From positions 1,536,001-1,600,000 of the forward strand of contig OZ253553.1 in assembly GCA_965262715.1 (NCBI GenBank): a DNA stretch of 64,000 nt, written 5' to 3'. Positions 7,107 to 63,995 of the stretch are shown here, in pieces. Position 1 is the stretch's first letter. Each line of letters opens with the position of its first letter. The stretch is from Bdellovibrionales bacterium. Lineage in GTDB: Bacteria > Bdellovibrionota > Bdellovibrionia > Bdellovibrionales > JAUICD01. The notes beneath the pieces were generated by a model. That model did not search any database and was not told the origin of the DNA. It saw nothing but the letters and a program-made list of their open reading frames with translations. Made by a program: the position numbers and the translations under genes.

Positions 7107-7766
7107 ATGAGCTTAAAGCTTTGGGGAAACTTTCTCTTATTTTTATTAATAGTAGAGAGTTTTCAAGGGACAGTGTTTGCCAAATCTCCTTTAGTTCTTC
7201 AAATGAAAGTTTCTCATCCCAGAAATGTTGATCAAGTCTCTCTTATTTTTAAAGAAAATACAGTAAATCTTGTGAACAATGTTCATCAAATCTCTTCTAA
7301 TTCAAAACATAGAAAACCAATACAGTTAGGTCAGTTTCAAACAGGTTTAACACGTGATTTTAAATTGTTTAGAAGGCAGATTCAGGCTTACAAAAAGCTT
7401 TTGGATAAAAGTCAAACTCGTATAAATAAATCCCAAATTTTAAGAGCTATTGGTTCTGTCAAAAAGGTCACACCTCACGTGCCTAGTATATATATTGGTG
7501 GTGATGGAAGGGTTCGTGAAGTCAAAAAAGGCCATCCTTATTTTCAACCTTTGAAAAGAATTTTGATGAAATCCATGCAGAAAAAGTACAAATGTGTCTC
7601 TTGCGCTACGTATGACAAAAAAGGGAAATCTATTATCAGGACTGTCAAGGAGCAAGGTAAATCTATACAGAAGAGAACATTTTCAAGGAAAAACCTCCAA
7701 TGCTTTCAAGTGGACAAGAAAAAAATGGAATGTGTGGATGAGACCTATGGCATATTTGAAATTTAA
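7107..7766 (+). CDS. Secreted basic hypothetical protein
   Basis: Signal peptide ending VFA; Lys-rich; four C-terminal Cys. Confidence 0.7.
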   Translation: MSLKLWGNFLLFLLIVESFQGTVFAKSPLVLQMKVSHPRNVDQVSLIFKENTVNLVNNVHQISSNSKHRKPIQLGQFQTGLTRDFKLFRRQIQAYKKLLDKSQTRINKSQILRAIGSVKKVTPHVPSIYIGGDGRVREVKKGHPYFQPLKRILMKSMQKKYKCVSCATYDKKGKSIIRTVKEQGKSIQKRTFSRKNLQCFQVDKKKMECVDETYGIFEI

Positions 7767-9765
7767 GGCTTATAGGCTTCTGCTTATACAAATAAGCCTT
7801 TTAGGGGCTTTGTATTTAAGCTTTCCGGTTATTGCGCAAGAAAGCTTGATTCAGTTTGATGTAGCCTATGAACTAAGATCTATAAAAGGGGTAACAGATC
7901 AAAATAAACCAGAATCTTTTTTTATAAGGTTGGAAAATGGTCAAGTGGATTTAAATCCTTTTTTTGTGCGTGCAAATAGTTTATTAGAACAATCCAATAG
8001 AGAAAATGCATCTTTTATTGAAAGAGATTTGGGTTCTATTTTAGACTACTCTAACGAGCTTTGTGGAGAGCTTCCAGAGCGAAGTCAAATCCAGGCTTGT
8101 CAAAGCAATGTAGGATTGAGAATTGAAAGTCAAAAAGCTCAAATGTTAGAAAGACAGGCTGAAAGAGTTTTGTTCTCGAGATTTTATGATAGAGTTACAG
8201 TTCCTTCTCAAAACGAAGTTGATAAAGTAGCCAATAGAATACACGATTATTATATCAATAGAGGAGGGTGTAGAGCAAATTATTGTCTAAATAACGATAT
8301 TATGGATACATTGCTTTATGGATCTTCTATGCATTACAATCAAGTTCTGGACGTCCTTAATGAAGCAGGATTTACAAAAGAATGTTTAAAACATGTTTTA
8401 GAAGAGATTGCAGCAGATTATTGGATTGATCCATTTTCCGGAATGCCTAAAACTTGTGGAGGCTTGAACGGATCAGATCAAAGAGTTTGTCGTCAAATGC
8501 AATCTGATTTTAGGCGTGTGACAAATCGTATTGAAAATATGGTCAAAGAAATCCAGCCTACCAAAGAAGCAGATGTCAATGTTTCTTTATCCTGTTCGAC
8601 AAGCAATGATTTGATGCAAAATCTTACCAATGTGTTATCAGAAATAGAAGAAAGATCCTGTACAAATTATTCTGAAGGAGAGCAAAGGCTGCCTCAACAG
8701 ACAGCTTCATACAGTGGTTTTTATAGTGTAGAGAAAGAATCAAATGGCAATTACACAGTCACTATCCCCATTATTTTTTCTCCTGCCGATGATTATGATG
8801 GAGATGTTCCTGAAGATCAAATCAATGCTCACTATTTAGAAAGAACACGAACATGTATGGATGAGGCTAGTCCTCACATGCTAGGCCCTAATGGAGAAAG
8901 ATTGAACTTTAATATTGTAGATGGTTCATCATTAGATGCAAGTTCTTGTCAGCAGCCAAACAAAATTTCTATTCAAAGCACTGGCACAAGATCAAATGCT
9001 GACAGCTATGCCGCTGATATAAGTTGTTCAAGCACTACACATGAATTAGGACATGAAATGGGATTGGCGGATGAATATGCAGAAATCACTAAAGGAAGAA
9101 ATGTGATTGTCCTTAACGGAAGTATTGAGCAAGAAGGACAATCCATAACAGAGACATTTCTTCCTAACTATAATTGTCGTGTTATACAGAACAACAGTTT
9201 GATGGCAAATCATAGGGAAAGATTTGGAAGTGTGCAAGATGAACACAATGATTCTTTGTTAGATCCTACACATTTTCAAGTGATTTTATATGGAACAGCC
9301 TGTCAGTCAAGAGGTGATATTAACCTTTATCAGAAGTGCGCTTCATTAGCCTATGAAACACTCTACAAACCTAACAGTGAAGAAGATAATTGTCCAGAGA
9401 TAAAACAGCAATGTGAAAGATCAAATATATTAGGTAGAGACCTTGAAAGGGACATTGAAAAACTAGAAGCTCAACTTAAAGAAAAACTTGATCAAATATT
9501 TTTCATGAATAACCAAGGTCTTTCTAATTTTCTTGGAAATGAATCCTTGTCGCATATTTTAAGAAGAGCTACAGAAAAAACGAGAGCTAATCCAGGTATA
9601 CTTACAAGAAACCTCTTTACTATACAAGAATTAAGAGATATCGAGAACACCTTGGACCCTGGTCTTTATAATGGTTTTAAGATGTTTTTAAATCAAAGAG
9701 ATCGAAGTTTAATCGAAGTTAAGCATTTAAGACTAGATCTAAGGCGTTCAAGATCGCTGCCATAA
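7747..9765 (+). CDS. Secreted Cys-rich zinc metallopeptidase-like protein
   Basis: Signal-like N-terminus from ATG 7747; THELGHEMGLADEY zincin motif with downstream NSLM Met-turn-like segment. Confidence 0.7.
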   Translation: MAYLKFKAYRLLLIQISLLGALYLSFPVIAQESLIQFDVAYELRSIKGVTDQNKPESFFIRLENGQVDLNPFFVRANSLLEQSNRENASFIERDLGSILDYSNELCGELPERSQIQACQSNVGLRIESQKAQMLERQAERVLFSRFYDRVTVPSQNEVDKVANRIHDYYINRGGCRANYCLNNDIMDTLLYGSSMHYNQVLDVLNEAGFTKECLKHVLEEIAADYWIDPFSGMPKTCGGLNGSDQRVCRQMQSDFRRVTNRIENMVKEIQPTKEADVNVSLSCSTSNDLMQNLTNVLSEIEERSCTNYSEGEQRLPQQTASYSGFYSVEKESNGNYTVTIPIIFSPADDYDGDVPEDQINAHYLERTRTCMDEASPHMLGPNGERLNFNIVDGSSLDASSCQQPNKISIQSTGTRSNADSYAADISCSSTTHELGHEMGLADEYAEITKGRNVIVLNGSIEQEGQSITETFLPNYNCRVIQNNSLMANHRERFGSVQDEHNDSLLDPTHFQVILYGTACQSRGDINLYQKCASLAYETLYKPNSEEDNCPEIKQQCERSNILGRDLERDIEKLEAQLKEKLDQIFFMNNQGLSNFLGNESLSHILRRATEKTRANPGILTRNLFTIQELRDIENTLDPGLYNGFKMFLNQRDRSLIEVKHLRLDLRRSRSLP

Positions 9766-11276: not shown

Positions 11277-11304
11277 GACTGACCTCTTTCACTAAGAGCT
11301 GTCC

Positions 11305-11444
11305 TCACTAAAAATAGACCAGCCTCTCGAGGTGAGCCTCTCGAGGCGAGCCTCTGGCTGTTTTTTGGCAATGACCACGACGATTAGCATCCTCGCAAAA
11401 TAGTCATTGCCTAAAAAATCCGTCTATTTTTAGTAGGGAGACTC
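11305..11444 (+). repeat. Structured dispersed repeat family A, copy 1 (core duplicated by 14 bp)
   Basis: Outer stem 11307-11319/11422-11434; inner ggcaatgac/gtcattgcc; core agcctctcgagg(t/c)g x2 then agcctctgg. Confidence 0.85.
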
Positions 11445-11465
11445 CCTTCGTTTTGTAACATAATG

Positions 11466-11561
11466 TTGAGCTGGACCCTCAATTTATCCAGCTAATTTCA
11501 AAATCATTGCCCTAAGGCCAGACTCTTTCTCATTTTTATCATTAGCTCTTATCACTTCTTA
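11466..11561 (+). repeat. Dispersed repeat family B, copy 1
   Basis: Aligns with the reverse complement of 38159-38266 (ttgagctgg..tcaatttat..aatttcaaa.tcattgccct..gactc..tcattagct.ttatcacttctta). Confidence 0.8.
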
Positions 11562-11644
11562 TTCTTTTGGCCTTCAATATTTAGTTTTCTCAAATAGAGG
11601 AATTGAACGCAAATGATAATAAGGAAATCGTTCTTATTCTTATA

Positions 11645-29164: not shown

Positions 29165-29866
29165 CTAAGAAATAGCACCAAATCTCCGCTTTCTTTTGTG
29201 ATAAAGGTTAATAATACGGTTTAAATCTCTTATAGAAAAGCTAGGCCAGTTTTTTTTAAGAAAAAATAGCTCAGCATAAGAGGCCTTCCAAAGCAAGAAA
29301 TTAGAAAGACGTTTTTCACCACTGGTTCGAATAATAATATCTGGATGAGGTAAAAAGTATGTTTCTAAATAGCGATGAATAAGCTCCTCTGTTATATCTT
29401 TTACTTTTATTTTCTCTAATAAAACATCCTTTGCAATATTTTGCATTGCCAGCTGGATTTCTTGTTTGCCTCCATAATTTAAAGCAATGGTTAAGGTCAT
29501 TCCTGTATTTGTTTTTGTCTTTTCTATAGATTTTTTAATTTTTTGCTGTATATCAAGAGAAAGTTTTTTTGTATATCCAATTGAGCAAAACCTTACATTG
29601 TTTTTCATCATTGTGTGGATTTCACTATCTAAGTATTTACTTAGAAGCCTCATAAGAATATCTAATTCTTTTTGTGGTCGTTTCCAATTTTCCGTGCTAA
29701 ATGCAAAAAGAGTGAGATATTTAAGCCTCTTTTTGACAGAAGCTGTAACAATGTTATGGACAGTTTCGGCTCCCATATTATGGCCATAAGTACGAGCATA
29801 CCCTTGTGTTTTTGCCCAACGGCCATTCCCATCCATAATAATTGCAATATGTTGCGGAGTATTCAC
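29165..29866 (-). CDS. uppS: Undecaprenyl diphosphate synthase
   Basis: HIAIIMDGNGRWA, FSTENWKR and RTSGEKRLSNFL motifs. Confidence 0.96.
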   Translation of the reverse strand: MNTPQHIAIIMDGNGRWAKTQGYARTYGHNMGAETVHNIVTASVKKRLKYLTLFAFSTENWKRPQKELDILMRLLSKYLDSEIHTMMKNNVRFCSIGYTKKLSLDIQQKIKKSIEKTKTNTGMTLTIALNYGGKQEIQLAMQNIAKDVLLEKIKVKDITEELIHRYLETYFLPHPDIIIRTSGEKRLSNFLLWKASYAELFFLKKNWPSFSIRDLNRIINLYHKRKRRFGAIS

Positions 29867-29878
29867 TTAAACCTCGTT

Positions 29879-30020
29879 TCACTCAAAATAAACCAGCCTT
29901 TCAAGGCGAGCCTCTGGCTGTTTTTGGACAGTCAGCCTGAAGACTTACGTTACGGGATATATCCCCTTCAAGAAAATGCTGACTGCCTCAAAAATCCATT
30001 TATTTTGAGTAGAGAAAATC
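29879..30020 (+). repeat. Family A copy 2
   Basis: Outer stem 29881-29892/29999-30010; core gcctttcaaggcgagcctctgg; inner cagtcagc/gctgactg. Confidence 0.85.
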
Positions 30021-30354
30021 TCTTCATTTTTTTATAACATGTTAAGGAAATCCTGCATAAACACCATTATAAATAAAATACAATTTTATAAACATTTTGT
30101 AATTTAATCATCTGTTTGTGAATTACACAATAATTCTTTAAAGTTGCCTTATAGTATTTCTGTTTGTAAGACTTTACTACTTGTTTGCTAAAACGGCAAA
30201 TCACTTACTGATAACAGACACAGGCTGTCTGTTTCCTTGATTGCCCGATCACCGTATTAAAATAAAGACTTAATAAGATATAGTTTACAACTTCAATATC
30301 TTACCTCGAAATGGCAACACCACCTTAGTTATAAGCCTAAATCATTATTGATAT

Positions 30355-46806: not shown

Positions 46807-48552
46807 ATGCTATTTAAACAATCTCTGATCGTCATAATAATTTGTATAAGTCCACATTTATATGGACAAAGCCTTCCTGCTTTAAACTCTACTCTAGATG
46901 AGGGTACTAATAGAACCTTTCCAACTCTCCGTCTTCCTTCGGCATTTTCTTATCACATTCTAAGCAATGTTACAGAATTCCAATTTTCTGTTTTTATAAG
47001 TCATATATCTTTCAAAAGAAAGGTCCAATTTTTAAATACAATGGAATACAGTAATATTATACATGCCTTAGAAATGAAAATAGCAGACATACTACATTAT
47101 GGAAATAATGTGCTCGCCGTATTAGCAAATTTATACCCTTCCACATTTATGAGGCTCCTTGACTTAGAAGATGAACCTGGAGGAAAGAAAGTTATAGGTC
47201 TTTACCTTCAGGATATTGAGTTTCATGAAGATCGTTCCAGTGAAAATAGATGGATTATAGATAACTTTATCTTTGGCCTTATAACAAGTGATGGTCAACC
47301 CTTAATCACAAAAATACCTTGCAATGAAGAATGTCATCAGGAAATTGAAGAAAAGATGGAGCTTGATAGACTTCATTCTCAAATATTGAGCAGACTTGGT
47401 TATAGTATGTCTCAATCTTTTGAGGATCTTCTTATAAGAGAAAATATTCCTCAAAATCATACTTTAACTCTTTATCTAAAAGATCTCTCTCCAGAAAATA
47501 AGTCTGTCAGTAGTTTTAAAGATATAGAAAGAATCAATATAGGAGTAATTGTGGAAGATGATGAACAACGATTTATTAGGGAGATCGATTGGATTATTGA
47601 AAAACCTGATTTGCAATATACCACAACTCATGTTCAATCATCTATTCTTACTGCATTTCACGAGTCTGCTCATGAATTAGTCAAAAGGGTTTTCTTATCA
47701 AATGACTATATAGGTTACACTTCAATAGAACCCGCCTTATTTTTTTTTAATAATAAATGGACTTATGCACAAGGTTTATCTATAAGTTCCGATCCATTAT
47801 ATTCGATTGATCAAAATAATTGGCTTCAAAAAGCAACTGTATTACTTGCTGGCATAGTTTCTGAAAGACTTCTGTCTAACACACAGATTTTGAAGGTTCC
47901 TACTACTCCTGATTTAATCGAAGCTGTTTTTGTAGTCTTTAATGATATATGTCTTGAAAGAGATGATATTCATAATGAACTGCCTTGTTTTTTAACAGAT
48001 GACTTTAATCGTTTTAATGAATGGTTCTCAAACAGTCATCAAACTGCATCATTTGAAGATTCTCTATTTATGAGGGAGGTGAATCCACGACTATCTCTTG
48101 TTCGAGCTTCATCCCACAATATTCTAGTTAACAACTTAGATGTTTTAATACAACTTACACGACTGACTCTACAAAGAGGATCATTGGACAATCAAAACCT
48201 TCAAGATTTTTTTCAAAGAGCTCCCGTTCAAAGAATACATGGAGACATCTCTATTCTAGAGAATTATAGATACGCTCTACTACCTGATATTGGCCCAGAT
48301 ATTTTGGATAGAAATCTTTCTTTATTATTTTCTCTAGATTCTCAAGAAAGTATAGATAAAGTTAGAATATCTTCTGTAGAAGAGATTTTAGAAGAAGCCG
48401 AAGAAGTTAGAATTCCTGGATATGTTCTTTTAAGCATTCGCAAAGGACCAATACTTGACATAGAACAAAATTACGCTCAAGGTCTTCCATCTCTTTACCT
48501 CAGAGAAGCTATCGATACATTTGTATTAAGTCTTACTGGAGCCTTTCATTAA
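46807..48552 (+). CDS. Secreted protein with an FtsH-like (M41) metallopeptidase domain and no AAA domain
   Basis: Signal-like N-terminus; TAFHESAH and LLAGIVSE resemble FtsH TAYHEAGH and LGGR.AE; no Walker A seen. Confidence 0.6.
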   Translation: MLFKQSLIVIIICISPHLYGQSLPALNSTLDEGTNRTFPTLRLPSAFSYHILSNVTEFQFSVFISHISFKRKVQFLNTMEYSNIIHALEMKIADILHYGNNVLAVLANLYPSTFMRLLDLEDEPGGKKVIGLYLQDIEFHEDRSSENRWIIDNFIFGLITSDGQPLITKIPCNEECHQEIEEKMELDRLHSQILSRLGYSMSQSFEDLLIRENIPQNHTLTLYLKDLSPENKSVSSFKDIERINIGVIVEDDEQRFIREIDWIIEKPDLQYTTTHVQSSILTAFHESAHELVKRVFLSNDYIGYTSIEPALFFFNNKWTYAQGLSISSDPLYSIDQNNWLQKATVLLAGIVSERLLSNTQILKVPTTPDLIEAVFVVFNDICLERDDIHNELPCFLTDDFNRFNEWFSNSHQTASFEDSLFMREVNPRLSLVRASSHNILVNNLDVLIQLTRLTLQRGSLDNQNLQDFFQRAPVQRIHGDISILENYRYALLPDIGPDILDRNLSLLFSLDSQESIDKVRISSVEEILEEAEEVRIPGYVLLSIRKGPILDIEQNYAQGLPSLYLREAIDTFVLSLTGAFH

Positions 48553-59391: not shown

Positions 59392-62300
59392 ATGTGGAAC
59401 AAAATTAAATTAATAATCCACCACTGTATCATCTTTACTATCTGTTTGTCCCTTGTTTGCCATGCACCAACGCCCCTTAAAGCTCAGGAAAGCCTTATTC
59501 AAGATATGCCACTTGTGGACACCGTCATAAGTCATTTAGGCATAGGCACCCATCAAGAATCTTCGGGACAAGAAACCGTTTCCTATCGTCAAATTGACAC
59601 ATGGACTCTTCTGCCACAAGAGCTTCAATTTCATCCAAAAGCAGGCAGAATGCATCCAGAAGATATCACCATTGCTGTAAAACATGAATATCCTGATAAA
59701 ACAGAAATAGCTCATTATATCTATGGAAGACCTAATACAGTCAATAACAAGCATTTATCTTTTGAAGCACCTTTTTACGGAGAAGAAGAAGCTTTCGTCC
59801 CTAAGTTCGAACTTCAATATGAAGAAGATCCATTTTGGTCCCTCAATAAAGAGATTGTCACTATTGCTAAATATGGCCATTATATTGTCTTTATCACTAG
59901 AGATCATATCTATGAAGATCACCTACAGCTTTCTTTTATTGATTTAAGTTATTTTCAATCTACTCTCGGAAAAGAAGAAGGTTATCCTGCTATCTTTCAA
60001 ATGCCTGTTCCATTAAACAGCCCTTTCAGCTCATTAACAGTGGAAGAAGGATTATTGAAAGTTAATGATTATGAAATATCACGAGAAATGTTAGATGAAT
60101 TTGGTTATCTTCAAGCCATCACTTGGAACATTCAAGCTAACCTTATCCGCAGTGAAACTTTTGAAGAGATGTCTCCGTTTATTGATAGCTTTTTAGAAAG
60201 CATTGAATCAAGTCAGCAAACTATTAGAAACACTTTAATAACTAATACACGACCTTCAATGACAAAGTTTAATACTCCCCAACAACTAAATATGTTTCAA
60301 CAACAATTAAGAAGAGCAATAGAAACTGCAAGAAACTCTGTCAAAAAAATCAATGATGAAAAACACAAAACCCAGACAGCATGGGAAGCATCTCAAAGAA
60401 TCACTGCTGATTATTTAATAGACCATCAAATGGCTCAAACACGGATGCAAAATGCATTACAACTACAAACTGAGGCTCGAAAATTTTTTGGACGAGCTAG
60501 AATACTCTTTGAAAGATTAAAAATGCCTCGCCCTGCGGACGGTGGTTCTATCAGACAAGCCTTAGCTTTTGTCCTAGGGAGCCTTAGAGGTCCAAATGGT
60601 CAAAAAGCATGGCAATTCAAAGAAGGGGTTTTACAACTTATCCACAACCCTAAGTTAAAGTTTGGGGTTCCATTTACTTTAGCCCTTTCATTAGGAGCTA
60701 CTTACCCCGCTAGAGCTTATGATTATATGTATCAAGTTATAAGCCTTGGTGGCATTATATTAGATAAGATAGGTGAAAATTTTTTAACATTGTACAATCT
60801 TTTCAATACAGCTGTATCTGCAAACGGCTTTTTTCACCCCCAACAAGTTTGGCAAGCTTATGTAGTAGAAGGAGACTTTTCTGCCTTTGCTATAGCAAAT
60901 ACTATATTGATACTCGGTCCTTTAAGTGCTCTTGCTATCTCTCATCTCACAGTGAATGCTTACCATGCATTATCTGATTTGAAAGAAGAGGCAACTTTTC
61001 AAGCTAATCATCATACAGGATCTATAAAAACAAATATTCAAAATACCTTAGGCTCGTTAAGGCAGGGTTTTATCCACCAACAAAATCAAAATAGACGTAA
61101 TTACCTTATTGATCAAGCTATAAGCTCTATAGATGCTAGAGAAAGAGACTTTACTGAAGAAGAAACAGAACAAGTCATTCATATTTTAAAAGAAAGACAC
61201 GATGCAGAGCAAACCTTTATAGGAAGGTTTTTAGAAAGAGTAAGCGCTCCTCTAAAAAGATTAAAATTCTTTCAGAATAAAGAAGTTAATAACATAGAAA
61301 TTCGAAGCCTTAGAAGCGCCATTATGTATCTTATTTTTAGTTGGAGATCTTTTGAAAATACTAATATTGCATACGCTCATTTATATCATAAATACATATT
61401 TTTAAAAGTAACTTATTTTTGGAAACCTCCTACTTTTTTAGGATTGATTTATTATCCTAACGCTTTAAATGTTATTACTCATTATGGAATTGAATCTAAA
61501 GCTCCTCACCCTATAACTACAGCTAATGGAGGAAACCGCCCTTTCTGGAGAGAATATCCTCTCTTACTTGCAAATCTTATTGGAAAAGGACCATATAAGG
61601 CTTACAAAGAATGGGAAAGCCATATTATACCGATCGAAAATCTCATTAAAGAAGAAGTTCAAAAAAGAGCATTGAAACTGACACTTCAAAAAATCAAAAC
61701 TAGGTCCCTAAGTCATAGAGCTTATACAGCATCAGATACACAAGATGCTATTTCAAATCTTAATGGACAAAATGAAAGACTTTATATGGCGTTAACAGAC
61801 CGTCTCTTTGCAAAGACTTTTCAAAGAGTTATATCACCGGTGTTTGAAAGCGCTCATTGCTATCATGCTATTGAAGTTTGCCTGGATCAGATAGATCAAT
61901 ATAAAGAATCCACATTAGATGTTATCAAAAGTGTCAATCCTTCTAGGCAAGATATTAACAATGCAATTGATCAAATAGAAAGTGACGTCCTTACAGAGGT
62001 AGAAAACAAGGAGTCATCACCTCATCGCACTGCCAACAGAGTTCAAAGGTTAGTTCATAATGCACTTTATAAAAACCTTAATCATAACAAAAATATGGCT
62101 ATTGAACTGTGGCTTGTTGTTAAAGAACAGATGCAAGATACAAGAGCGCGCTCTAGGAATGCAAGGAAAAGTCTTTATCAGTTTTTTGAAAAAATCCCTA
62201 AGCTTTATATCACTTGGGCTGCTGGATCAGGTATTATGTTAAGTGCTCTTGCTGGGGACATACCTAGAACAGACGTTATGGTCCCATTAACAAATCAGTT

Positions 62301-63108
62301 TCCATATTACTCTCAATTCCTCTTTGGTGTTGGTTTTTTGTTTTATTCTATCAAGGATATGTTATCCTCCTTTGGCACAAATCTTCAAGTAGAGTACCAC
62401 CTCACAAAACAAGGAGTTTTTAATCATATACCAAAAGGTGAAGATGTTCATTTAAACTTTATACAATGGTTTTTCAAGCAGTTTAAGAATAAAGACAACA
62501 CAGTCCTTAAACATATAAAAACCATGACGAGGATAACATGGGCCAATGTACCTGCTACATTACTTTTAACATCCACCATATATCCTCTTATTATGGGAAG
62601 ATTTCCTTTAGATCTATATCTTATAAGTTATTTAGGTTATTTTATGTTCCCTATCTGGGCTCTCAATATAAAGATTGAACAGGCTATGGAAGCCGCTATG
62701 TCTGGTTATTGGATGAAGTTTTTTTCAGAAGACAAATTAGAAAATCATCCTTTAGCTCAAAATTATGATCTCAAAAAGAAGGTCCTATTTAAAACCATTA
62801 TGCTTATCTTTTGGACCTTTCTTTATTTGAATATACTGTCTGCAACTCTAAATAATCTTCAATATATGGGCGATGAATCCTCAAGAGAATTTGCTAGAGT
62901 TTTCTTTTTTGGTCATCCACCTACAGTTTGGGCTGTGAAAGGCTTCAATGTAATTAAGGAATTCTTTGATCAGACACCCCTCCTTATAAATACAATCATA
63001 GATACGTGTCAAACAGCCCTGACAAATGGTTATGATGGATGGGACCCTACATTGGATGGACCTCCTCCTGAAAATGTTAAAGTATGGGTGCCAGAAAAAG
63101 CAAATTGA
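59392..63108 (+). CDS. Large secreted/membrane hypothetical protein (1238 aa)
   Basis: Signal peptide, helical middle region, several hydrophobic segments; no family recognised. Confidence 0.8.
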   Translation: MWNKIKLIIHHCIIFTICLSLVCHAPTPLKAQESLIQDMPLVDTVISHLGIGTHQESSGQETVSYRQIDTWTLLPQELQFHPKAGRMHPEDITIAVKHEYPDKTEIAHYIYGRPNTVNNKHLSFEAPFYGEEEAFVPKFELQYEEDPFWSLNKEIVTIAKYGHYIVFITRDHIYEDHLQLSFIDLSYFQSTLGKEEGYPAIFQMPVPLNSPFSSLTVEEGLLKVNDYEISREMLDEFGYLQAITWNIQANLIRSETFEEMSPFIDSFLESIESSQQTIRNTLITNTRPSMTKFNTPQQLNMFQQQLRRAIETARNSVKKINDEKHKTQTAWEASQRITADYLIDHQMAQTRMQNALQLQTEARKFFGRARILFERLKMPRPADGGSIRQALAFVLGSLRGPNGQKAWQFKEGVLQLIHNPKLKFGVPFTLALSLGATYPARAYDYMYQVISLGGIILDKIGENFLTLYNLFNTAVSANGFFHPQQVWQAYVVEGDFSAFAIANTILILGPLSALAISHLTVNAYHALSDLKEEATFQANHHTGSIKTNIQNTLGSLRQGFIHQQNQNRRNYLIDQAISSIDARERDFTEEETEQVIHILKERHDAEQTFIGRFLERVSAPLKRLKFFQNKEVNNIEIRSLRSAIMYLIFSWRSFENTNIAYAHLYHKYIFLKVTYFWKPPTFLGLIYYPNALNVITHYGIESKAPHPITTANGGNRPFWREYPLLLANLIGKGPYKAYKEWESHIIPIENLIKEEVQKRALKLTLQKIKTRSLSHRAYTASDTQDAISNLNGQNERLYMALTDRLFAKTFQRVISPVFESAHCYHAIEVCLDQIDQYKESTLDVIKSVNPSRQDINNAIDQIESDVLTEVENKESSPHRTANRVQRLVHNALYKNLNHNKNMAIELWLVVKEQMQDTRARSRNARKSLYQFFEKIPKLYITWAAGSGIMLSALAGDIPRTDVMVPLTNQFPYYSQFLFGVGFLFYSIKDMLSSFGTNLQVEYHLTKQGVFNHIPKGEDVHLNFIQWFFKQFKNKDNTVLKHIKTMTRITWANVPATLLLTSTIYPLIMGRFPLDLYLISYLGYFMFPIWALNIKIEQAMEAAMSGYWMKFFSEDKLENHPLAQNYDLKKKVLFKTIMLIFWTFLYLNILSATLNNLQYMGDESSREFARVFFFGHPPTVWAVKGFNVIKEFFDQTPLLINTIIDTCQTALTNGYDGWDPTLDGPPPENVKVWVPEKAN

Positions 63109-63114
63109 CCTATT

Positions 63115-63241
63115 TCACTCAAAATGAATTGGCCTCTCGAGGCGAGCCTCTGGCCATTTTCTGGCAATGATTCCAACAGTTTTCACTGTCGGTAAAAGAA
63201 TCATCGCCTAGAAAATCTATTCATTTTGAGTAAGGAGACTC
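63115..63241 (+). repeat. Family A copy 3
   Basis: Outer stem 63117-63129/63219-63231; exact core; inner ggcaatgattc/gaatcatcgcc. Confidence 0.85.
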
Positions 63242-63335
63242 TCCTTGTTTCTTAAAACAATGTTAAGGAAACCATTTTTCAATCACCTTAATGATCTGAG
63301 ATGAATTCTATAAAATTTCCTACTATCTTTTGGTG

Positions 63336-63363
63336 TTGACTTTGTGCTACCTTCAGTTAAATT
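63336..63363 (+). promoter_or_regulatory. Possible sigma-70 promoter firing into family A copy 4 and rpiB
   Basis: TTGACT-16 nt-TAAATT. Confidence 0.4.
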
Positions 63364-63366
63364 AAG

Positions 63367-63495
63367 GAGTCTCCTTACTAAAATGCATGGCTTTCTAGGC
63401 AATGACCTACTTGCCAAACGGCGTGAAGCCAGTTTGGGGACAATGCCAGAAAGTGACCAGAGGCTCGCCTCGAGAGGTCAGATGCATTTTAATGA
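63367..63495 (-). repeat. Family A copy 4, inverted relative to copy 3
   Basis: Outer stem 63377-63388/63482-63493; core ccagaggctcgcctcgagagg; inner ggcaatgacc/ggacaatgcc. Confidence 0.85.
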
Positions 63496-63536
63496 GACAA
63501 AGACCAGTTTATTTTAAGTGAGATAAGTACTACGTA

Positions 63537-63995
63537 ATGGATAAAATTTTTATTGCTGCAGATCATGCAGGTTTTAACCTTAAAGAAAAAATAAAAACAA
63601 ATATAGGTCAAACTTTGAGCCATATAAGTTTAATTGATTTAGGTGTTCATCTTTCTAATGGAAAACTTCAAAAAGTTGATTATCCAGATTATGCTTCCTT
63701 AGTTGCTCAAAAAGTCAATAGAAAAGAAGGGATGGGTCTCCTTATCTGTGGATCAGGTCAAGGAATGTGTATGAGAGCTAATAAATACCCTTATGTGAGA
63801 GCTGCACTCTGCTGGGACATACCCTCCACCATACTGGCAAGAGAGCATAATAATGCTAATATTTTATGTCTTGGAGCTAGATTATTACCATTAACTTTAG
63901 TTGATCAAATTATAAAAACTTTCTTTGAAACCTCATTTGATGAAAAATCAAGGCATCAAAAACGTGTTGAAAAAATCTCTCAAGGAATATCATAA
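63537..63995 (+). CDS. rpiB: Ribose-5-phosphate isomerase B
   Basis: ADHAG, DYPD, ICGSGQG and REHNNAN motifs. Confidence 0.96.
   Translation: MDKIFIAADHAGFNLKEKIKTNIGQTLSHISLIDLGVHLSNGKLQKVDYPDYASLVAQKVNRKEGMGLLICGSGQGMCMRANKYPYVRAALCWDIPSTILAREHNNANILCLGARLLPLTLVDQIIKTFFETSFDEKSRHQKRVEKISQGIS

Follow-up and report, generated by a model that had tools for sequence, protein, structure and literature searches.

Several bacterial repeat families spread without an identified enzyme. Among them is bcr1 of the Bacillus cereus group, which is lineage-restricted, dispersed in up to 130 copies and regarded as mobile from its genomic pattern (PMC3184786, PMC6542083). As far as the cited accounts go, bcr1 resembles the element described here, which was identified in the genome holding the analysed window (G000) and in a second carrier genome (G001), in its compensatory changes, its branched fold and the lack of an identified enzyme. 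In those accounts bcr1 is interpreted as an RNA, and each of its copies bears a TTTAT motif and direct repeats of 5 bp, neither of which occurs in our element. The latter also differs from the bcr1 of those accounts in its polar junctions with deletion or long duplication, its DNA-type loops on one strand and its preference for tRNA ends.

The REP, BIME and REPIN sequences with their RAYT (TnpA-REP) are, like the element, high-copy, intergenic, nested and present in tandem arrays with flanks, and share with it a bulged hairpin probably read as single-stranded DNA. They are tagged palindromes of 20-40 nt or inverted doublets, whereas the element is an asymmetric three-way junction of 146 nt with no constant GTAG tag, and no RAYT was found in G000 or G001. 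The attC sites have a variable sequence, a strand-specific fold of single-stranded DNA, an extrahelical base and a variable apical part. The element likewise keeps a strand-specific fold and an extrahelical base (97%), a likeness in the way of working and not of membership; unlike attC it has no integron integrase, no cassette array and no precise crossover core.

The element is small and non-autonomous as MITEs are, and makes long variable duplications as IS1634 and IS1549 do; it is unlike MITEs in having no terminal repeats matching any insertion sequence (IS) tested, one imprecise end and mostly no duplication. With the single-strand priming signals of phage G4 (its origin) and RSF1010 (ssiA), as the cited source describes them, it has in common the mini-hairpin GCGNNAGC on a single strand (PMC13037366), and differs from them in having no linked replicon, Rep or primase gene. 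Retroelements such as SINE-like sequences and retron msDNA would call for a reverse transcriptase (RT) in every carrier genome; three RT matches were identified in G000 (two group II intron, one retron St85-like) and no RT candidate in G001. On these comparisons the closest parallels in the way of working would be attC and REP, which are likewise read by their fold, and bcr1 shares with the element the lack of a known enzyme; the element appears to belong to none of these classes. New are the likely folding strand, opposite to the one first read, the polar insertion, the abutment on tRNA ends in two genomes and the overwriting by other subtypes. The family was not found in the literature on neighbouring topics, which is not proof of its absence from print.

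Copies in the window and range of the family

The window is a 64,000-nt stretch of G000, a genome of 2.94 Mb and 33.6% GC from a Bdellovibrionales bacterium; labels such as G002-G004 denote relatives. An earlier note, made from the letters of the window, had flagged four copies with four pairs of outer-stem arms, a swapped inner stem and an A-rich bulge. All of these are present, and a covariance model run on the window recovered exactly the four copies. They are listed below with their associated features; the strands given for copies are those of the likely folding strand, opposite to the orientation of the note.

11302..11467, minus strand: copy 1, covariance model 115 bits, between pgk and tpi (names from Pfam)
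11327..11354, plus strand: the 14-nt insert, present twice in tandem within the side hairpin of copy 1 ("fixed core" of the earlier note)
11468..11620, strand not assigned: a different repeat, about 150 nt long and with 24 genomic BLAST hits, inserted in the tail of copy 1
29876..30050, minus strand: copy 2, full length, covariance model 124 bits
29901..29914, plus strand: variant of the 14-nt insert in copy 2
29951..29965, plus strand: a palindromic insert of 15 nt, optional in the family, within the apical hairpin of copy 2
63112..63271, minus strand: copy 3, full length, covariance model 138 bits
63137..63150, plus strand: 14-nt insert in copy 3
63286..63369, minus strand: fragment of a four-helix-bundle gene (TIGR02436, residues 40-67) between copies 3 and 4
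63368..63498, plus strand: copy 4, inverted, covariance model 60 bits, upstream of rpiB (63537-63995)
63460..63473, minus strand: 14-nt insert in copy 4

Copy 1, with its two tandem inserts, has a tail split by the second repeat family, and the last bases of this tail resume at about 11621-11627, past the inserted repeat. The fixed end of copy 2 lies 9 nt before the GTG start of an uppS-like ORF (29165-29866, minus), that of copy 3 lies 3 nt past the stop of ORF 59392-63108, and the tail of copy 4 is truncated at the four-helix-bundle fragment. All four copies fold far below their shuffles on either strand (DNA z -4.4 to -8.1; equalled by 0 of 200 shuffles). The family of about 150 nt (24 hits; 11468-11620 in the window) both enters the tail of the element and itself receives the 14-nt insert. 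Elsewhere in the window, HipA C-terminal and HipA N-terminal domain genes adjoin at 1135-2677, and ORFs 59392-63108, 46807-48552 and 7594-9765 (1238, 581 and 723 aa) have no Pfam or NCBIfam match.

A profile built from the four window copies gave 464 hits in G000, and one built from 78 representatives gave about 460, of which 284 were intact at both ends (reversed-genome control, 0). The repeat covers 59,781 bases, equivalent to 2% of G000, and its hits group into 225 clusters. Only 4% of element bases fall within ORFs of at least 120 aa, which make up 77% of the genome. The copies are dispersed, nested, variable between strains and found in both orientations to genes. Nearby gene starts number 39 beyond the fixed end and 8 beyond the tail, and 19 of 208 fixed ends lie at most 12 nt from a same-strand stop, compared with 2-5 in later windows. 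The replichores hold 94 and 105 clusters, without bias. No autonomous version with an ORF between the two ends of the element was found in G000. This genome also contains several more small repeat families, some of them structured and often adjoining the element; one comprises about 51 regions with a long hairpin, and several have in common a CTCAAAAT-like end motif.

BLAST identified the element in 3 of 41 relatives. The covariance model, with 21 candidates scored per genome, identified it in 3 of 150 genomes of the order sample (G000, G001 and the mis-binned contigs considered below) and in 1 of 150 of the phylum sample. A degenerate pattern scan of species genomes returned 109 stretches, all in one Bdellovibrionales MAG record, and none in viral or metagenome contigs. 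No Rfam family reached its gathering score (best E 0.81), in agreement with the earlier note, whose author did not recognise the family. By these scans the element appears to be found only in one Bdellovibrionales genus.

Fold and likely folding strand

In the orientation of the earlier note the 146-nt unit begins with GTTTC(A/C)CT, followed by an outer stem of 11 bp, a side hairpin of 5 bp with a TCT loop and an inner stem of 16 bp with one bulged T (97% conserved). The apex is a 7-bp hairpin beside an A-rich bulge. The 3' part, missed at first, is a conserved unpaired tail of 40 nt ending in TGTTAAGGAAA, in which G(T/G)A(G/A) precedes a weak small hairpin; this tetramer is variable (G91 T62 A92 G50%). 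A weak inverted motif of about 10 nt is present at the ends of the element. The overall fold is a three-way junction with one bulged base.

Mean identity among the 78 representatives is 70%, and every one of the 17 top corrected mutual-information pairs is a predicted pair. An alignment of 50 diverse copies, drawn from G000, a near relative and loci L090-L169, has 97.2% of 2090 cells paired and 30 of 42 pairs changing on both sides. Of 500 shuffles none reached the observed value; kinship among copies inflates these counts, and slid controls nonetheless paired at only 33-46%. The covariation of the helices supports the earlier claim that structure is conserved over sequence.

The "fixed GC-rich core" of the same note is in fact an insert of 14 nt that is optional in the family, although each of the four window copies has it: 135 of 183 end-to-end copies are without it, and the exact core 15-mer occurs 46 times against 284 intact copies. 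Given this optional character, the idea that the core forms two mutually exclusive hairpins, as a two-state switch, is not supported. The 14-mer has 221 occurrences in 157 runs (control, 2), mainly within the side hairpin and also at GCCTC sites elsewhere, such as a tRNA-Asp duplicate. The 15-nt insert recurs at one position of the apical hairpin, and this shared position is its support, its reversed-genome control being uninformative (43 vs 25). Nor are the apical segments, for which the note envisaged a check against phage or host targets, guide-like: they fall into a few subtypes, in each of which a G-N-N-A loop closes two self-complementary arms, and BLAST of a whole copy against phage and plasmid collections gave 0 matches.

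The loops distinguish the two strands. The mini-hairpin GCGNNAGC occurs on the strand opposite to that of the earlier note in 45 of 228 unique copies and on the latter in none; in the 50 aligned copies the numbers are 38 and 0. This sequence is described, in the source cited, as a very stable DNA mini-hairpin of single-strand priming sites, whose RNA counterpart has much lower stability (PMC13037366). The apical loops, read on the opposite strand, are c-GTGA-g, c-GTAA-g, c-GAAA-g, c-GGTA-g or c-GACA-g, and the side loop is c-AGA-g in 66 of 78 representatives. Among the 50 copies 29 apical loops are GNRA, 18 GNYA and 3 other, so the third loop base is not restricted to purine; the GNRA loops, the majority, fit RNA as well. 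G·T pairs occupy 44 of 3036 cells (1.4%) on the strand of the note and 63 (2.1%) on the opposite one, compared with 60 of 830 in the tRNA stems of this genome, a scarcity that could also stem from arm-to-arm correction during copying and not from selection. With DNA parameters the opposite strand folds lower in 21 of 26 copies. The folding form is likely single-stranded DNA of the opposite strand.

Junctions, tRNA gene ends and turnover

Insertion is polar. The fixed end lies within 0-6 nt of the target, and the other end is accompanied by deletions or, in a minority, by long duplications. The 195 unique flank pairs gave no signal of a short target duplication (2-8 nt). Founder ends whose flanks are free of the element were put to a strict test, which identified a long direct repeat ending at most 7 nt from the fixed end in 10 of 122 clean ends. 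Random non-coding points gave 11 of 500 (p=0.003); shifting the anchor gave 0 of 127, and mirroring it to the tail gave 1 of 127. Two of the ten are in a CRISPR repeat and two in arrays, which leaves about six clean cases, with duplications of 28-58 nt and 0-5 extra bases at the fixed end; the other 112 founder ends show none. In a looser test the upstream flank was repeated downstream at 37 of 200 unique copies, mostly array members, against controls of 4 and 23 (the latter upstream). Further duplications restore the ends of a ribosomal-protein gene (rpmJ, we presume from its translation), of the gene before what we take to be rplN, of tRNA-Arg and of tRNA-Pro.

Insertions in four-helix-bundle genes, for which intact alleles are known, have lost about 2-4, 29 or 55 nt on the tail side. 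Arrays consist of the element plus its downstream flank, each new unit restarting at the fixed end with 0-6 extra bases, and copies insert into one another at recurring places. The extra bases are A-rich on the folding strand. The junction consensus at -2/-1/0 is C47/T76/G65%, CT-rich, and the flanks in general hold no more hairpins than controls do (n=154, p=0.75). Among the sequences disrupted by insertions are genes, a CRISPR repeat, a tRNA-Pro copy and other copies of the element. The CRISPR array concerned (G000:C1:2603447-2608400) has 59 repeats, presumably of the Cas12a type; the element lies in the last repeat and is amplified there, and a copy of the CRISPR-element junction is found at about 2694236. 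One CRISPR spacer that resembles the element (score 16) is no outlier among 145 spacer-like sequences (mean 12.7, sd 1.8, max 18).

Of the 38 tRNA genes called by ARAGORN in G000, 5 have the fixed end 0-4 nt beyond their 3' end, where 0.04 were expected, four of these five joins being at CCA within 0-1 nt; three further tRNAs have it on the other strand, at 2-8 nt from their 5' end. The corresponding number for G001 is 4 of 35 tRNA calls, with distances of 4-9 nt beyond the 3' end, and the Val, Ser and Leu tRNAs of this genome have the fixed end on the other strand, at 3-7 nt from their 5' end; these counts omit two weaker cases with one mismatch. Only tRNA-Asp and tRNA-Ser(GCT) are targets common to both genomes. 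This symmetry of 3' and 5' ends points to the foot of a folded DNA stem more than to a mature RNA end, although the flanks in general show no excess of hairpins. Other tRNA-like sequences of G000 are a tRNA-Pro copy at about C1:2823900 whose anticodon arm is replaced by a variant element (an intact tRNA-Pro(TGG) being located elsewhere, at 937316), and four tandem tRNA-like units with an unreadable anticodon before tRNA-Trp (C1:2198524-2198960, ARAGORN).

Turnover is visible between close relatives. In a strain of 95% identity (180 differences in 3781 nt; run X5) the place of copies 3 and 4 is taken by 161 different letters. Three small contigs of the G004 assembly (C1, C4 and C11; L208-L212) are 86-95% identical to G000, whereas the main G004 contigs are far more distant; judged on these identities the three are probably mis-binned from a near relative. 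This relative, about 90% identical, has copies at sites that are empty in G000. At one insertion shared with G000 it carries a different, fully paired inner module and side hairpin, and copies are thus overwritten in blocks. Block overwriting explains the mosaics and not the origin of the paired subtypes.

Mechanism and rival explanations

The earlier note had left open a structured non-coding RNA, a cis-regulatory leader or a mobile element recognised as single-stranded DNA. The last of these fits best; a single non-coding RNA gene or a leader is at odds with 460 dispersed, nested, strain-variable copies in both orientations. Our tentative reading, which falls a little short of probable, is a selfish folded element of single-stranded DNA, copied by one-ended joining with host proteins. 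What it has to accommodate is observed directly: the three-way-junction fold, loops that differ between the strands, the polarity of the junctions, copies nested in one another or lined up in tandem arrays, turnover at strain level and block replacement of inner modules.

According to this proposal the element would move as a folded single DNA strand, opposite to that of the earlier note, and be joined by its one fixed end. At the target a nick, a stalled nascent strand or an R-loop, for instance next to a folded tRNA gene, would supply a free 3' end, and this would be joined to the GAAAC end of the element, or prime copying from it, with 0-6 extra bases. Copying would then run through the tail and return to the chromosome, where a return upstream would give a duplication, a return downstream a deletion and a return into a neighbouring copy an array. 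The other end would be resolved by replication or recombination. The fold and the invariant positions would be read by a protein, probably of the host replication or repair machinery, because no dedicated transposase is common to both carrier genomes.

The enzyme search comprised named families: Y1, RT, IS110, Rep_trans, relaxase, Y2, tyrosine recombinases, IS, Rpn and Cas1. No transposase, RAYT, RT or integron integrase matching the element and common to G000 and G001 was found; markers put the completeness of the two assemblies at only 90-93%, and a gene for such an enzyme may therefore have been lost or left out of the assembly. G000 has a single Y1 gene, of the IS200 type with its own terminal hairpins and no adjoining element copy, and G001 has none. 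IS110 was not found in G000, Rep_trans (PF02486) was found in 0 of 5 genomes and relaxase (PF03432) is absent from G000 and G001; Y2 (PF04986) was found in 0 of 5 genomes, but its positive control also matched nowhere. The best integron integrase match scored 75.5 bits against a cut-off of 265. Each genome has two tyrosine recombinases, of which one is XerD-like and the other a short form present in 51 of the 61 genomes examined in the order, and no dif-like core was matched inside any copy in support of a dif/Xer likeness of the tail. At L006:1459-2016 (minus) lies a single-copy, catalytic-domain-only tyrosine recombinase of 185 aa, found in 51 of 61 genomes of the order.

Further candidates were rejected. 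Rpn nucleases are described in the cited work as leaving 3'-OH ends able to prime synthesis (PMC5350276). They are multi-copy in G000, but 16 are present in G003, which is free of the element, and they are therefore only a possible source of nicks. Cas1 is also present in G003. The retron St85-like RT, which lies 570 bp from one copy, occupies a single locus and is missing from G001. Downstream of tRNA-Asp (L003:1282-3054, minus) a retron St85-family effector and an RT are fused in one protein of 590 aa. The four-helix-bundle (TIGR02436) genes are expanded in G000, G001 and G004 (19, 14 and 19), but all element hits of G004 are on the three contigs that look mis-binned, so G004 proper has these genes without the element; they are frequent targets, not partners. 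In G000, G001, G004, G021 and G025 they are cassettes present in several copies, flanked by short repeats and with a hairpin that covers the ribosome-binding site, and three G004 copies carry an insert of their own of about 66 nt at one site.

Against one-ended joining of single-stranded DNA stands the fact that no enzyme and no excised or single-stranded form was seen, nor any interpretable excision joint in the contigs. A replichore bias is established for IS608, a lagging-strand element of single-stranded DNA. Its absence here counts against an element of that kind, since such elements are expected to be biased. The small share of copies with long duplications, the lack of hairpin excess in the flanks and the GNRA majority among the loops weigh on the same side.

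Template jumping by a reverse transcriptase is an unlikely explanation, although the best placed of the rivals. Group II intron RTs are reported in the cited work to switch to 3' ends of RNA or DNA, adding A preferentially (10.1101/792986), and a group II intron RT is present in G000, where CCA is the join, within 0-1 nt, at four of the five tRNAs; the extra junction bases are A-rich on the folding strand, and 29 of 50 copies have GNRA loops. G001, however, has no RT candidate despite many recent-looking concatemers, and at its tRNAs the joins fall 4-9 nt away from the end. That joins also lie antisense to tRNAs and genes, the little G·U and the GNYA loops (18 of 50) likewise argue against RNA templates.

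A REP/REPIN- or PATE-like element, cut and joined by an HUH nuclease (Y1/RAYT) that was since lost or is unassembled, is a decidedly unlikely explanation. The cited reports have RAYTs cutting at CT or CA beside bulged or perfect hairpins (PMC8266576) and REPINs nesting and forming arrays (PMC3116915), and folded single-stranded DNA with a conserved bulge, the lack of a short duplication, the CT-rich junction, the nesting and the arrays would suit such an enzyme. The one Y1 gene of G000 nevertheless belongs to an IS200-type element with hairpins of its own and no copy beside it, and there is none in G001; the GTAG-like tetramer is variable, no inverted doublet unit was found and there is no strand bias.

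A regulatory element maintained by the host (a terminator, mRNA stabiliser, promoter or protein-binding site) and spread by recombination or gene conversion is no easier to credit. It would agree with the 96% of element bases outside long ORFs, with the non-random placement (39 vs 8 gene starts; 19 of 208 fixed ends near a same-strand stop) and with the swapping of modules at a fixed site, but copies disrupt genes and each other, vary between close strains and occur in one genus only, and conversion alone gives no single fixed junction end at unrelated sites.

Long variable duplications have been reported for IS1634 and IS1549, for which no mechanism had been put forward by the time of that report (PMC2266710). 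IS1634 copies of G000 have exact abutting target duplications of 38-294 nt at 12 of 23 tested, and the family is also present in G001; its co-occurrence with the element in G004 fails, since the element-bearing contigs look mis-binned. The ends of the element matched none of those of IS30, IS256, IS5, IS3 or five IS1634 groups, and IS1595-like and IS200 elements have no multi-copy ends for comparison. A MITE moved in trans by IS1634-family transposases is the least likely of the rivals, since the duplications at 12 of 23 copies, the presence of the family in G001 and the weak inverted end motif of about 10 nt are set against IS ends unlike those of the element, IS duplications that abut both ends exactly (those of the element have extra bases and a loose tail, and are mostly absent) and strand-specific loops for which a DDE enzyme would not account. 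The IS1634 copies of G000 (38-294 nt duplications) are a good set for studying long variable duplications.

Beyond one-ended joining with host proteins, a wider claim, speculative and rather unlikely, would make the element the type example of a class of selfish DNA without transposase, in which the mini-hairpin would serve as its own priming or joining signal for host replication proteins, capture free 3' ends, including those at tRNA genes, and copy the element in by one end. The family offers hundreds of copies, empty alleles, a fixed end, a folding strand and invariant positions, which makes the mechanism testable with oligonucleotides and extracts. If an enzyme yet to be named copies the element, the folded strand would be the bait with which to find it, and if neither this nor host proteins do so the element would be one more lineage-specific repeat. 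If host proteins copy it, the element would represent a route to selfish DNA without a transposase.
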